NCBI GenBank assembly: GCA_963555815.3
Contig: CAUVWX020000002.1
Location: 544,001 to 608,000 of the forward strand
Source: a bacterium
GTDB lineage: Bacteria > UBA8248 > JACPRG01 > G963555815
Direction of reading: 5' to 3'
Length of the DNA: 64,000 bases
In this document: one piece after another, positions 5,017-63,998 of the stretch
Layout: each line of letters opens with the position of its first letter
Numbering within the stretch: the stretch's first letter is position 1
The notes under the pieces: model-generated
What the model was told of the DNA's origin: nothing
What the model saw: the letters and a program-made list of their open reading frames with translations, nothing else
Databases searched by the model: none
Made by a program: the position numbers and the translations under genes

Positions 5017-6411
5017 ATGGCCACCCGGACGTCCCGCCGCGCGACTACCACCGGTCAAAAATCTCTTCAGGGCTCCAAACCCAAGGCGAAGGACAAGGAA
5101 TATGTCCTGCGCATGGTCAAAGAGCACAACGTCAAGTTCATCCGTTTCTGGTTCACCGACATCCTAGGGTTCTTGAAGAGCTTTGCCATGACCCAGGACG
5201 AACTGGAGCTCTCTGTGTACGAAGGGCAGGGATTTGACGGCTCCTCTATCCAAGGGTTCGCCCGCATTGAAGAGAGCGACATGGTGGCCATGCCGAATCC
5301 CGCCACCTTCCAGATCCTCCCCTGGAGGAATCGAGAGGAGGGTGGCGTGGCCCGGATGTTCTGCGACATTCTGAACCCGGAAGGCACGCCCTATGCGGGA
5401 GACCCCCGCCACGTCCTCAAGCGAAACCTGAAGAAGGCCGCGGACCTCGGATACACCTTTTATGTGGGCCCTGAGCTCGAGTACTTCTACTTCAAGAACG
5501 CCGAAGGGACTGAAACCCTGGACCACGGGGGCTATTTCGATCCCACCCCCCTCGATGTCGCCAGCGACCTTCGGCGGGACACGGTCCTCACCCTTCAGGC
5601 CATGGGGATTGATGTCGAGTACAGCCACCACGAGGTGGGCCCCAGCCAACACGAGATAGACCTTCGCTATGCCGACGCCCTCACCATGGCCGACAATGCC
5701 ATAACCTACCGCTTGGTGGTCAAAGAGGTGGCCCTGAAGCACAACGTCTACGCCACCTTCATGCCAAAACCCATCTCCGGCGAGAACGGCAGCGGCATGC
5801 ACACTCACATGTCCCTCTTTCAGGGCTCAAAGAACGCTTTTTTTGACACCAAGGACCGAGACCATCTTTCCCCGGTCGCGAGAGCGTTCATCGCCGGTCT
5901 GATGCGCCACATCCCCGAGATCACCTTGGTCCTGAACCAGTGGGTGAACTCCTACAAGCGGCTCACGCCTGGCTATGAGGCCCCCGTCTACATCACCTGG
6001 GCCCGGCGAAACCGCTCCGATCTCATCCGGGTCCCCGTCTATAAGCCCGGCAAAGAGCAGGCGACCCGCGTCGAGGTCCGCTCCCCCGATCCCGCCTGCA
6101 ACCCCTACCTCGCCTTCGCCGTCATGCTGGCGGCTGGCTTGGAGGGGATTCAGAAGGGTTACAAGCTCAGAAAACCCGTTGAGCGCAATGTGTATGACAT
6201 GACCCAGGAGGAAAGGAAGAAGCTGGGGATCGAGACCCTGCCCTCAGATCTCCATGAGGCCATCAAGGTGGCCGAGGAGAGCAAGCTCCTGCGGGAGTGC
6301 TTGGGGGATCACGTTTTCACAAAACTCCTGGAAAACAAACAGATCGAATGGGACCGCTACTGGGCCCACGTCTCCAAGTACGAGCTGGACAAGTACCTAC
6401 CCATTCTCTAG
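5017..6411 (+). CDS. glnA: Glutamine synthetase type I
   Basis: FDGSSI, GPELEYF, HHEVGPSQHEI, ATFMPKP, NGSGMHTH and RVEVRSPDPACNPYL motifs. RBS AGGAGGAG. Confidence 0.97.
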   Translation: MATRTSRRATTTGQKSLQGSKPKAKDKEYVLRMVKEHNVKFIRFWFTDILGFLKSFAMTQDELELSVYEGQGFDGSSIQGFARIEESDMVAMPNPATFQILPWRNREEGGVARMFCDILNPEGTPYAGDPRHVLKRNLKKAADLGYTFYVGPELEYFYFKNAEGTETLDHGGYFDPTPLDVASDLRRDTVLTLQAMGIDVEYSHHEVGPSQHEIDLRYADALTMADNAITYRLVVKEVALKHNVYATFMPKPISGENGSGMHTHMSLFQGSKNAFFDTKDRDHLSPVARAFIAGLMRHIPEITLVLNQWVNSYKRLTPGYEAPVYITWARRNRSDLIRVPVYKPGKEQATRVEVRSPDPACNPYLAFAVMLAAGLEGIQKGYKLRKPVERNVYDMTQEERKKLGIETLPSDLHEAIKVAEESKLLRECLGDHVFTKLLENKQIEWDRYWAHVSKYELDKYLPIL

Positions 6412-6448
6412 GGGTCTAGAAGGGATTCTCGACGCTTCAGGGCAGGTG

Positions 6449-6715
6449 TCAGGGCGAGACGACGTCCCCTTCGATGGGGTCGACCCGGACTCCCCGGGTC
6501 TCCAGGGCCTCGACGGCCCGCTCGATCTCCTCCGGCTGGCCGGTCAGCTCCAGCTCCACCCAGCCCGATTCGGCCGTCACGTTAGCCCTGCGGATGTTGT
6601 AGACCACCTGAAAGGCCTTTCCGATCTCGTGGATATAGGGCCTTTTCACCTTCTCACTGGGGAAGGTGAGCCGAACCCGGACCCTTGTCGCCGTCTCTTC
6701 TTTCACGGTCCCCAT
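6449..6715 (-). CDS. NIL domain protein
   Basis: 88 aa: VRLTFP..VKRPYIHEIG..F.VVYNIRRANV...SGWVELELTG. Confidence 0.8.
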   Translation of the reverse strand: MGTVKEETATRVRVRLTFPSEKVKRPYIHEIGKAFQVVYNIRRANVTAESGWVELELTGQPEEIERAVEALETRGVRVDPIEGDVVSP

Positions 6716-45278: not shown

Positions 45279-46466
45279 TCAGCGCTGGGTCACGAGGTAT
45301 TCCGCCGCCCGAAGGGCTGCCTTGGCCCCCTCCCCTGCGGCCACGAGGATCTGTTTGTCCCTCACGTTGGTCACGTCGCCTGCGGCGAAGACCCCCGGGA
45401 CGCCTGTGTTCGTATCGCAGTCAATGAGGATCTCGCCAATTGGATTCGTCTTAAGGGCGTCCAGGGCGAAGCCCGAATTCGGCAGCAGACCGACCTCGAC
45501 AAAGACCCCCCGGACCGAAAGGGTCTTCTCCTCCCACGAACTTTTAGAGCGGACGCGGACCCCCTCCACCTCGTCCTTCCCCAGGATCTCAAGGGTCTCA
45601 TGTCCTGTGAGCTGTTCCATGCGCTTCGTCTGCCTCAGCTTGTTCACGAGAACGTCGTCACCCGTGTAGTCCCCGACGACGATGAGGTAAACCTTTTTGG
45701 CCATGCGGTCGAGCTCCAGGGCCGCCTCTATAGCCGAGTTCCCACCCCCCACAACGGCCACATCAAGGCCTTTGTAAAAGGGGGCGTCGCACGTGGCGCA
45801 AAAGGCCACCCCCTTTCCCATGAGCCGCTCCTCGCCCGGAACCCCTATGCAACGCGGGCGTTTTCCCGAAGCGATGATGAGGGAACGACCCTGATACTCA
45901 TGGCCCGTCTGCGTGCAAACGCGCTTTATCTTGGGGAGTGCCTCCAGGCGGACGACGTTCGCCCCGATGATGCGGTCCATCTCGAACTGCTTTACGTGCT
46001 CGTCGAATTTGTCGATGAGGCTCTGGGCCTCGATGTAGTGGAAGCCCAGGTAGTTTTCGAGTTCAGCCGTGATGTTCAGCTGGCCCCCCACGTCCTTTCC
46101 TAGAACAAGGCATTTCAAGCCCTTCCGGCTGGCGTAAACGGCGGCCGTCATCCCGGCGGGGCCGGCCCCGATGATGATGACGTCATAGAGGGTTTTTAGG
46201 TCCGCCCGCTTCACAAGACCCAGCTTCTCATCGAGGACGCCCGTGGCGTTGAGGGCAGCAAGCTCGTCGTAACCCCCAATGACCTCCTCATCAATGAGGA
46301 TCTGGGGGGTGGTCCGCCCCCTTGTCCGCTCGATCATGGTGTCCCAGCCAGGGGTCCCGCCAAGGACCTCGATCTCCTCCGCCGTCACTTCCTTCTCCTT
46401 GAGCAGCGCCCGCGCTCGATCGCACCAGGGTCAGCCAGGTTGGGAATACATGAGGACTTTCGCCAT
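45279..46466 (-). CDS. Selenoprotein: glutaredoxin (UPWC) fused to TrxB/AhpF-type FAD disulfide reductase, 395 aa, Sec12
   Basis: RBS AGGAGG and ATG at 46466 give MAKVLMYSQPG-TGA(46431-46433)-PWCDRAR, in frame with ORF 45279-46388. Grx motifs TTPQILID and IGGYDEL; reductase motifs GAGPAG, CATCD, GGGNSA, AAGD. Confidence 0.9.
46397..46430 (-). promoter_or_regulatory. Putative bacterial SECIS element
   Basis: AGCG-CGGG-CGCT hairpin (alternative GAGC/GCTC pairing) with loop starting ~19 nt after UGA. Confidence 0.6.
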
Positions 46467-47633: not shown

Positions 47634-47674
47634 CGCTGCAGGGCACCCCTGAGGCCCGAAAGGGGTGAGGGGAA

Positions 47675-48373
47675 ATGGCTGTCGAGCGAAATCACTATCA
47701 GAGAATCCCCCCAGGGCCTCTGTTTGGCTTATGGTCCTGGCGCTATCTCGACCTCCTGAAGATGATCCGTCTCAGGCTGAACCCGCGGATCCATGGCTTC
47801 TATACAAAGTTTCCCACCATTCCCCCCCCCGGCTCCAAATTCCCCGAGGTCGACCTGGAGACGGTGGACGGAGGGAGAATCAACACAAAAGCGCTTCAAG
47901 GGAGGAGGCACTTCGTCCTCCTCACCGGGGCCCTCACCTGACCTCCGACCCGGAGGCAGTTGCCTCTCATGGAGGAGCTGGCAAGAAAGTATAAGGACCG
48001 GGGTGTGGAGGTCTTCCTCATGTACGTCCGGGAGCCCCATGCGAAAGAGCGGGGCTTTCGCCAGTACCGAAAACATGAGAGTTACGACCACAAGATGGAG
48101 TACGCAAAGCTCCTGGTGAAAAAGCACAGCCTCGTCATCCCCTGTCTTGTGGACAGCCTTGATGAAAAGTTGCACCAGATTCTTGGAAACCTTCCAAATC
48201 TTGTTTATGTGGTGGATAAGAAAGGGGAGGTCTTCTACAAAAACACCTGGACAGACGCAGACGCCATTGACGAGATCCTGGCTGAGCTGGTGACGGCGGA
48301 AGACCCATCGCGCCCCGTCCAAAAGACGATGGACAGTCGCCACGTGCCGGGCCGGATCCCCGTTGAGGTGTAG
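47675..48373 (+). CDS. Selenoprotein: iodothyronine deiodinase-like thioredoxin-fold protein, 232 aa, Sec89
   Basis: ORFs 47675-47941 and 47960-48373 are one frame separated only by TGA at 47939-47941: FVLLTGALT-U-PPTRRQLP...YKDRGVEVFLMYVREPH...DSLD...GNLPNLVYVV. Confidence 0.88.
47942..47975 (+). promoter_or_regulatory. Putative bacterial SECIS element
   Basis: Lower stem CCTCC/GGAGG, upper stem GAGGC-AGTT-GCCTC, loop at +17 to +20 from UGA. Confidence 0.7.
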
Positions 48374-62481: not shown

Positions 62482-63261
62482 ATGGCCATCCCCTTCTCGA
62501 CGCGTCTCTGGGTCTACACCAATTACGACTGCAACCTCTCTTGTATTTACTGCTGTGCCCGCTCCCACCCCAAGGCCGAACGGCGGGAGATCGGTCTAAA
62601 AACTTTCCAAAAATTGGTGGATGAGGCCGCCAATCTTGGGTTTGAGGAACTTTATCTGACAGGAGGAGAGCCGTTCCTTCTGCCCGAGATCTTCGACATG
62701 CTGAGCCACTCCCTCCCCCGGATTCCCACGACCGTCCTCACCAATGCGACCATCTTCACGCCAAAGCGGCTCGAACGCTTGAAGACGCTGCCGACAGGAC
62801 ACCTCTCCCTTCAGGTGAGCATCGACAGCCCAGACGCCGTTGTGAATGATTTTTACCGCGGAGCGGGGAGTTTCGAAAAGGCCCTAAAAGGGGTCCGTAG
62901 CCTGACGGCGGCGGGCATGCGCGTCCGCATCGGGGCGACAGAGACGCCCAAAAGCCGCGGACAGGGGGAGACCCTCTTTGACTTCCTCTCTGGCGAAGGG
63001 ATCTCTCGGGATGACCAGGTCCTTCGGCCCCTCGCCATGCGGGGCTTCTCGGAGGACGGGAAGGAGATCACGACCGACAAGCTCCTTCCCGAGCTTTGCG
63101 TAGACCGGGATGGGGTCTACTGGCACCCCGTCTCGACGGACGAGGACTTCCGCATCTGCCAGGAGATCTTTCCCCTCTCTCGGGTTGTTGCCACCGTTGA
63201 GGCTGAACTCATTCGCAGGGAGCGGGAAGGCATCCAAAGCGTCCCGTTTCAGTGAGCCTAG
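62482..63261 (+). CDS. Radical SAM protein (Rv1681/MoeX-like), probable selenoprotein with penultimate Sec
   Basis: CNLSCIYC, TGGEP, DGVYWHP. Ends TTT CAG TGA GCC TAG = F-Q-U-A-stop. Confidence 0.8.
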
Positions 63262-63284
63262 CCCTTTGGCCCGGTCGGGCCGAG
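63256..63284 (+). promoter_or_regulatory. Putative bacterial SECIS element
   Basis: TTGGCCC-GGTC-GGGCCGA hairpin, loop at +18 to +21 from UGA 63253-63255. Confidence 0.65.
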
Positions 63285-63341: not shown

Positions 63342-63998
63342 CTAAGAGGACTTGGCGCCCTCGCCTGACAAGACCTCCCAGAGACAAATGGTATTGTCCG
63401 CTGACCCTGAGGCGAGGAAGCGGCCATCCGGCGAAAAGGCGACAGAGCGGACCGTCCTTTCGTGCCCCCTCAGGCATCCCAGCTCTTTTCCTGAGGACAC
63501 GTCCCAGAGGCGGATCTTATGGTCCCGCGATCCAGACGCCAGAAGGCGGCCATCGGGCGAAAAGGCGACGGAGTAGACCCTGCCTACATTTTCGCCGAGG
63601 CGCCTCAATTCCTTCCCTGAGGACACATCCCAGAGGCGGACGGTCTCGTCAACAGCCCCTGAGGCCAGCAGGCGGCCATCGGGCGAAAAGGCGATGCTCC
63701 TGATCCAATCCCTGTGTCCATCAAGGCGCATCAGCGGTTGACCTGAGGACGGATCCCATAAGCGGATAGTCCTGTCGTCCGACCCGGAGGCCAGGATGCG
63801 GCCATCGGGCGAAAAGGCAATGGAGTTCACATCAGCCTTATGCGCTTCCTTACGTTCCTCCGTAAGGACTTTTAGCCCCTGCCCAGAGGACACGTCCCAG
63901 AGGCGGATCAAGGCGTCTTTTGACCCTGACGCCAGGACTTGACTGTCAGGCGAAAAAGAAACGGCGTAGACCCAGCCCCCAACCCCCCCAAGGCGTCT
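63342..63998 (-). CDS. WD40 repeat protein (5'-truncated by window edge)
   Basis: Repeats of (G)H...V.S(V/I)AFSPDGR.LASGS.D.TIRLWD; frame open to the window end; 126-bp DNA periodicity. Confidence 0.92.
   Translation of the reverse strand, partial: RRLGGVGGWVYAVSFSPDSQVLASGSKDALIRLWDVSSGQGLKVLTEERKEAHKADVNSIAFSPDGRILASGSDDRTIRLWDPSSGQPLMRLDGHRDWIRSIAFSPDGRLLASGAVDETVRLWDVSSGKELRRLGENVGRVYSVAFSPDGRLLASGSRDHKIRLWDVSSGKELGCLRGHERTVRSVAFSPDGRFLASGSADNTICLWEVLSGEGAKSS

Follow-up and report, generated by a model that had tools for sequence, protein, structure and literature searches.

Radical SAM selenoproteins are represented by only two entries, TIGR04167 and TrsS, among the 119 selenoprotein families in the accessible part of Table 1 of a 2026 review (PMC13188914). 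TIGR04167 corresponds to ArsS, whose selenocysteine (Sec) motif is listed as GxxU and for which the available portions of two sources describe the reaction of a 5'-deoxyadenosyl radical with DMA(III) to give DDMAA (PMC13598754, 10.64898/2026.04.29.721666). C-terminal tails with Cys or Sec are found in ArsL (RCCLKC tail) and the CUAEP/CCAEP proteins, and the C-terminal cysteines of ArsL bind arsenic according to the parts available of 10.64898/2026.04.29.721666 and 10.1101/2024.02.01.577332. The Rv1681 family (NCBIfam NF049973), whose gene is accompanied by the name "MoeX" in literature search listings and whose model name bears no selenoprotein label, has Cys as its penultimate residue, an N-terminal TusA-like extension of ~70 aa, and adjoining Rv1679/Rv1680-type genes. 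Sec at or next to the C-terminus also occurs in SaoC and the UXX-star proteins, whose folds are unrelated to that of the radical SAM protein described here, and mammalian thioredoxin reductase has Sec as its penultimate residue. With Sec in such a position, the bacterial SECIS element comes after the stop codon, and automatic gene calls leave the protein truncated.

The window analysed here, a stretch of 64,000 nucleotides, contains a radical SAM gene near its end. The gene starts at the ATG at 62482, and its frame is open as far as a TGA at 63253-63255, which is followed by GCC and by TAG at 63259-63261. The codons thus read as the original prediction had described them, namely an apparent TGA stop, one further codon, and TAG. 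If the TGA is read as Sec, the C-terminus becomes S-V-P-F-Q-U-A and the protein has 259 aa; public gene calls end it at 257 aa. The features of the locus are as follows.

62482..63261, + strand: radical SAM gene, 259 aa with TGA 63253 read as Sec (profile match, predicted radical SAM fold)
62530..62553, + strand: CxxxCxxC cluster motif, C17, C21 and C24 (alignment of 80 proteins)
63112..63129, + strand: GVYWHP motif, with G211, W214 and H215 invariant (alignment, model)
63253..63255, + strand: in-frame TGA, predicted Sec258 (aligned with the penultimate Cys of Cys-type homologs)
63256..63261, + strand: Ala259 codon and predicted true stop TAG (sequence)
63265..63284, + strand: SECIS-like hairpin, entirely within the 3' untranslated region (fold, homolog conservation)
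63342..63998, - strand: convergent WD40-repeat gene, extending past the window end (open reading frame list)

The genome is 2.08 Mb in size and 95.7% complete. The segment 63253-63284 was identical in contigs from all four sequencing runs compared (four studies, one of them possibly the source of the window), which rules out an assembly error behind the TGA. The motif at 62509-62540 was also matched by the contig of a second organism in all four runs, so these samples also contain a related member of the family.

The best match of the protein in NCBIfam (version of June 2026) was NF049973, the Rv1681 family (E 5e-88, 295.1 bits, profile positions 72-314 of 326), and no model scored above it. 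The two have the RLWxYTNxxCNxxCxYC and GVYWHP motifs in common, as well as a chalcogen residue in the penultimate position. However, the score of 295 bits lies below the family cut-off of 380; the window protein starts seven residues before RLW and has no N-terminal TusA-like domain; it carries a predicted Sec instead of Cys; and the Rv1678 and Rv1679 partners were not found. Single-protein queries of the genome gave no match to Rv1678 or Rv1679 and only a distant one (28%) to Rv1680, and none of these adjoins the radical SAM gene. Some TGA-type loci in Chloroflexota do have Rv1679-like or Rv1678-like neighbours. The original prediction had taken the protein to be a close relative within the Rv1681 family, with an F-P-C-A end given for Rv1681. 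Two proteins above the family cut-off (520 and 530 bits) do end in F-P-C-A, but the window protein, judged from its sequence, is a sister of that family and not a member. A quick, unrooted tree of 55 rows placed a Cys-only branch, which has the TusA-like N-terminal domain, opposite a mostly Sec branch containing Cys forms by reversion or parallel change; three rows labelled "none" carry Cys at the site. The Cys form of Rubrobacter (L042:5086-6783, L043) is fused to an N-terminal metallophosphoesterase domain and occurs in genomes without a selA match.

Membership in the described radical SAM selenoprotein families was rejected in each case. The protein scored 43.9 bits against a cut-off of 300 for ArsS (TIGR04167) and 17.9 bits against 490 for TrsS (NF045646). 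The only match of the genome to the CUAEP-tail family (NF040546) at E<=1e-10 was another gene; ArsL and CUAEP proteins, of about 470 positions and with several tail Cys, also differ from the family of the window gene in these respects. That other gene (G000:C1:1106494-1107888, - strand; L165/L172) scores above the NF040546 cut-off and has an in-frame TGA, which brings the radical SAM Sec candidates of the genome to two or more. A TrsS-related radical SAM gene (G000:C1:642195-643508, L053) reached 368 bits against the cut-off of 490 and has no internal stop.

The AF2 model of the protein showed a radical SAM fold with a mean pLDDT of 96.2. Over residues 251-259 the pLDDT was about 90, so the tail is predicted to be ordered, at odds with the flexible C-terminal tail first envisaged. 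Across 80 aligned proteins, C17, C21, and C24 were the only (nearly) invariant cysteines upstream of the tail, and the conserved extra cysteines of a SPASM/Twitch-type auxiliary cluster were not found; the GVYWHP motif lies on a beta-hairpin in the model, likewise without a conserved auxiliary-cluster Cys. This pattern implies that there is no auxiliary cluster and that, apart from the cluster motif, only residue 258 is a conserved chalcogen. There is no second Cys beside the Sec in the tail, hence no intramolecular selenosulfide pair there. The fold matches were SkfB, BlsE, SuiB, viperin, and EpeE, at 14-22% identity, and these show the fold only.

We consider it very likely that TGA 63253 is decoded as Sec with the help of the 3' hairpin. 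The genome has a tRNA-Sec, adjacent selA and selB, and a selD with an in-frame TGA of its own, i.e., the full set of selA, selB, selC, and selD expected for a bacterial selenoprotein. Genome-wide recoding of TGA is ruled out, because 1320 of the 2505 long frames end in this codon. All six genomes of the same family have TGA at the site, in each case as TGA-Ala-stop (one gene is frameshifted upstream). Thirty-one related genome loci from Chloroflexota, Myxococcota, Actinomycetota, and the window's own family had TGA at the site in 24 cases, Cys in six, and TAA or TAG in none, with one locus unreadable; 21 of the 24 were direct TGA-x-stop ends, one had a two-residue tail, and two were frameshifted. 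A separate, even sample of 151 Chloroflexota genomes (of whose 14 carriers three were known beforehand and one is the sample's centre) contributed 15 genes, 11 of which end in TGA-Gly-stop and four of which have Cys. With the exception of the unreadable L048, every locus that seemed to lack the TGA tail proved either to have Cys in this position or to be frameshifted. On the side of the Cys-type family, all 78 readable loci among 80 metagenome loci retrieved with a Cys-type query ended in F-x-C-[A/S]-stop. The in-frame TGA therefore aligns with a conserved Cys of homologs, as the original prediction had proposed from the Rv1681 family, and Cys-type homologs do carry this Cys in the penultimate position. 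Among the best 120 of 3670 protein matches, in whose records stop codons are invisible, 115 ended in F/Y-x, two in F-P-C-A, and three otherwise.

The alternative is that TGA simply ends the protein at F-Q and that the hairpin is a terminator or a product of chance. This would fit the fact that TGA is the commonest stop in the genome, that the hairpin by itself is not significantly stable, and that two TGA-type MAGs lack a selA match. However, in 31 TGA-type genes the first stop codon was always TGA, whereas the stop one codon later varied freely (TGA 17, TAG 11, TAA 3) behind a last residue that was G (22) or A (9), and every other readable homolog had Cys at the site. The accessible part of one source (10.1101/2022.07.06.499078) asks for at least 10 examples with TGA at the site in all of them; we found 31 distinct TGA-type 3' ends, with neither TAA nor TAG at the site. 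Furthermore, a selA match was obtained for 21 of the 23 genomes of TGA type, the two misses being MAGs whose completeness is not given, and in four of six Cys-type genomes (it was absent from both Rubrobacter genomes) as well as in the one unreadable case. In the Chloroflexota sample, selA was present in 11/11 TGA-type genomes and in 14/14 carriers, compared with 112/151 overall. A plain stop is thus very improbable, and, on the sequences compared, the family of the window gene appears to be a real and well-supported new selenoprotein family.

The hairpin at 63265-63284 has the loop GGTC at 63273-63276, and its first loop G is at +18. This loop and its position agree with the original prediction, but the stem is 8 bp in RNAfold, two G-U pairs among them, rather than 7 bp. 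Compared with shuffled sequences the hairpin showed no excess stability (z -0.57 for 40 nt; z -1.8 for 29 nt, 8/200), and its significance accordingly rests on position and conservation. A similar hairpin stands behind 33 of the 1946 TGA triplets within the window, and among the 1320 genomic open frames that end in TGA and span 200 codons or more, only the radical SAM gene combines a strict hairpin with a second stop one codon on. The hairpin rule was set after the sequences had been viewed. Of the TGA-type 3' ends, 30 of 31 satisfied it, against 16 of 70 for the distinct Cys-type ends and 15% for shuffled sequences; the two sets leave out L024, L026, L032, L048, L050, L066, L086, and four duplicate loci. 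SECIS conservation, which had been named as a check on the prediction, is thus seen in the TGA-type genes, and the Cys-type genes stay at background level. Since an ungapped MAFFT alignment of the SECIS regions mixes loops of 3, 4, and 5 nt, pairs were counted after anchoring on the loop. By this count, the loop G fell within +18 to +20 in 26 of 30 TGA-type hairpins, the fixed distance expected of a bacterial selenoprotein, and the stem pairs changed type but seldom broke (pair 5: GC 12, CG 10, AT 3, TA 2, GT 2, broken 1). The loop G of the selD hairpin in this genome is also at +18. No terminator was called at the hairpin and no U-tract follows the stem on either strand, and homologs retain the hairpin although their downstream genes differ; that it is merely the terminator of the convergent WD40 gene is therefore ruled out.

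The original prediction had placed this hairpin in the same register as two other SECIS candidates, probably those of the TGAs at 47939 and 46433. This is true of the former, whereas the latter has a weaker fold. The gene with TGA 47939 (47669-48373, + strand) encodes a redoxin/deiodinase-like protein with a T-U-P-P context and a stable hairpin (z -2.5) whose loop G is at +18, and is a likely selenoprotein. The other (45279-46460, - strand; TGA 46433-46431) is a glutaredoxin (U-P-W-C)-thioredoxin-reductase-like fusion, also a likely selenoprotein, split by stop-based calling. Elsewhere in the genome, in-frame TGAs with hairpins lie near G000:C1 522249 (- strand) and 628154 (- strand) in V-U-P-F and W-U-P-Y-C contexts, and probably belong to a DUF3179-like and a thioredoxin-fold selenoprotein.

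In the window, the radical SAM gene is preceded by lipB, exbB, and exbD and followed by the WD40 gene, a neighbourhood that is not conserved beyond the genus. Neighbour scans of the homologs, which took in selected ORFs, returned DUF2064/TIGR04282 at 10 of 31 genome loci and GT2 at 11 of 31. Other recurring neighbours were a DoxX-like membrane protein, GT-C-type transferases, ArsM-like methyltransferases, NUDIX, phosphorylase, epimerase, TusA/DsrE, and Rv1679/Rv1680-type genes. Several loci have different GT2, GT-C membrane transferases, phosphorylase, and epimerase in place of ars genes. ArsM-like methyltransferases flank the radical SAM gene in three loci (L036:3-710, L037:4358-4981, L041:3485-4195) and have an in-frame TGA of their own in D-W-F-R-U-I-G-G; their proteins fell below the cut-offs of three named selenoprotein models. 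One locus contains a DUF2064-NUDIX domain fusion (L037:2938-4260).

The distribution of the family followed that of TIGR04282. Among the 151 Chloroflexota genomes, the family of the window gene occurred in 14, TIGR04282 in 43, and ArsS in eight. TIGR04282 was present in 13 of the 14 carriers against a background of 43/151 (Fisher p 2e-7, related genomes not being independent), and lay within 3 kb of the radical SAM gene in seven of them. All eight ArsS genes adjoin TIGR04282, and ArsS and the family were found together in no Chloroflexota genome, where 2.4 were expected among the 43 (p about 0.04, again with non-independent relatives), so that the exclusion in this phylum is statistically weak. 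In the class to which the window belongs, the radical SAM gene was present in 7/7 genomes of the same family and in 0/44 others, ArsS was present in none of the former and in 40/44 of the latter, and TIGR04282 occurred in nearly all genomes; this split represents one lineage event. The CUAEP family received no support as a partner of TIGR04282, which was found in 13 of 35 genomes against the background of 43/151, and it accompanied the family of the window gene in one of the 14 Chloroflexota carriers.

No ArsS was found in this genome. The linkage to TIGR04282 that characterizes ArsS is seen in the family of the window gene as a whole, whereas in this genome TIGR04282 is present but unlinked, lying with ArsM-like partners on another contig. 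There it is divergent from an ArsM-like gene ending in Cys-Cys (L140:8455-12916; G000:C1:114.4-118.9 kb), a pair located close to a sulfite-oxidase-type molybdoenzyme and a CxxCH cytochrome. Elsewhere in L140, a different pair of open frames is present in two copies about 3 kb apart (L140:2734-3520 and 5743-6508), which suggests a local duplication or a repeated element. The ArsM-like query had a match in three of five genomes of the family and none at E<=1e-30 in the other two. A TIGR04283 glycosyltransferase gene (L141; G000:C1:765998-766946) immediately precedes tRNA-Sec in the same orientation, and TIGR04283 was found in all five family genomes tested.

Co-occurrence with TIGR04282, near-exclusion of ArsS, and ArsM-like neighbours lead us to propose an ArsS-like role. 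As our main reading, with a probability of roughly 0.4 for the explanation as a whole, the gene encodes a radical SAM enzyme with Sec that works as a non-orthologous stand-in for ArsS. That the family feeds a TIGR04282/DUF2064 and GT2 module for the activation and transfer of 5-substituted pentoses is probable. SelB would bind the hairpin in the 3' untranslated region to yield the U-A C-terminal end, an ArsM-like methyltransferase would supply a methylated As(III) species, and the tail would dock over the barrel, where the predicted Sec258 selenolate may hold the methylated As(III) as Se-As. The 5'-deoxyadenosyl radical would then attack the arsenic to give a 5'-arsinoyl-adenosine resembling the DDMAA of ArsS. 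Since dimethylarsinous acid has one free valence, a single Se or S ligand would suffice on chemical grounds, and arsenic binding by the ArsL tail, as far as the sources available describe it, is a precedent for arsenic on a C-terminal chalcogen residue. We regard this use of Sec258 for radical attack and a DDMAA-like product as a tentative proposal. The wider idea, a multi-phylum family that replaces ArsS and joins carbon to arsenic by way of a Se-As intermediate formed at its penultimate Sec, is put forward a little more tentatively still. ArsS and the family share a radical SAM enzyme with a Sec form, adjacency to TIGR04282, and near-complementary distributions; however, DDMAA formation is known for ArsS, whereas a product of this kind is a proposal for the family, and the family has the motif F-x-U-x-stop instead of GxxU. 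Among 30 genomes carrying the radical SAM gene, 28 have TIGR04282 and one has ArsS, a pattern in favour of a stand-in for ArsS. Against it count the one genome that has both enzymes and the 22 of the 43 Chloroflexota genomes with TIGR04282 that have neither, as well as the distance of the gene from its proposed partners in this genome, the loci with sugar-type genes in place of ars genes, and the two family genomes in which the ArsM-like query found no match. In this genome the CUAEP-tail enzyme could serve ArsM instead.

A selenoprotein of the same sugar module whose tail carries sulfur (or selenium) rather than arsenic is an unlikely alternative. Sec258 would receive a selenosulfide from TusA/DsrE-type carriers and give up its sulfur to the 5'-deoxyadenosyl radical, with 5'-thioadenosine as the product. 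From this, the combined action of a methyltransferase, phosphorylase, DUF2064, epimerase, GT2, and GT-C would lead to a methylthio-pentose decoration of the envelope like mycobacterial MTX. The profile of the N-terminal extension of the Cys clade (69 sequences) matches the free-standing TusA-like neighbours of Ktedonobacterial TGA-type genes, with hits to five of eight small ORFs tested (best E 7e-8), and these neighbours adjoin DsrE. Such neighbours are, however, limited to few loci, and the neighbour queries matched no TusA or DsrE in this genome. Methylthioadenosine is a common by-product of SAM, so that a radical route to it is not obviously needed. Phosphorylase-family genes in three loci, epimerases in three, and GT-C-type genes in several also favour sulfur, as does the resemblance of the neighbours to the mycobacterial MTX cluster, in which Rv0539 makes the MTX lipid donor (PMC12088412, accessible part).

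The sugar-handling neighbours would also suit an enzyme in which Sec donates a hydrogen atom or quenches a radical during the epimerisation or reduction of a sugar or nucleotide, a role of the type played by Cys223 of the epimerase EpeE. A single conserved chalcogen outside the cluster motif and the lack of auxiliary-cluster Cys agree with this, and the best-scoring fold matches include EpeE (Z 18.6) and BlsE (Z 20.2). Those matches are family-wide and show no function at 14-22% identity, and the exclusion of ArsS and the ArsM-like neighbours would be left unexplained; we find this reading doubtful. About as doubtful, or slightly more so, is a Sec tail with no function other than to coordinate or shield the Fe-S cluster or to serve as a redox switch, in an enzyme whose reaction has nothing to do with the DUF2064 module. 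The ordered tail in the model is compatible with it, as are the uninformative, non-conserved lipB, exbB, exbD, and WD40 neighbours in the window, but it does not account for the strong co-occurrence with TIGR04282 (13/14 versus 43/151) and the frequent adjacency of the genes. Under the arsenic reading, the gene context lets us be more specific than the redox, metal-binding, or radical-quenching residue of the original prediction: the residue likely holds the substrate, in a slot like that of ArsS.

The family of the window gene is absent from the part of Table 1 of PMC13188914 described above, but that part also omits CUAEP, which is present in NCBIfam, so that absence from it is no proof of novelty. 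The accessible parts of PMC9312934, PMC12013277 (where the term "radical SAM" does not appear), and the Haft and Gwadz preprint 10.1101/2022.07.06.499078 do not name it. A literature search of incomplete coverage returned no paper naming the family as a selenoprotein and none combining two of Rv1681, Rv1680, and selenoprotein. What is new here is the link to TIGR04282/DUF2064 together with the near-exclusion of ArsS, which occupies the same slot.

With our analysis, the bacterial selenoproteome gains a radical SAM family whose last two residues are missing from public gene calls. Lost with them is the one conserved chalcogen that does not belong to the cluster motif, so that an enzyme cloned from the annotated gene would likely be crippled. 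The TIGR04282 link and the near-exclusion of ArsS turn a family without a known reaction into a question for one assay, and bear on which microbes produce arsenosugars or related 5-substituted pentoses. If the proposal is true, bacteria scored as incapable of making arsenosugars for want of arsS would be producers after all, and there would for the first time be a reaction class to test in Rv1681, the Cys-type sister family.
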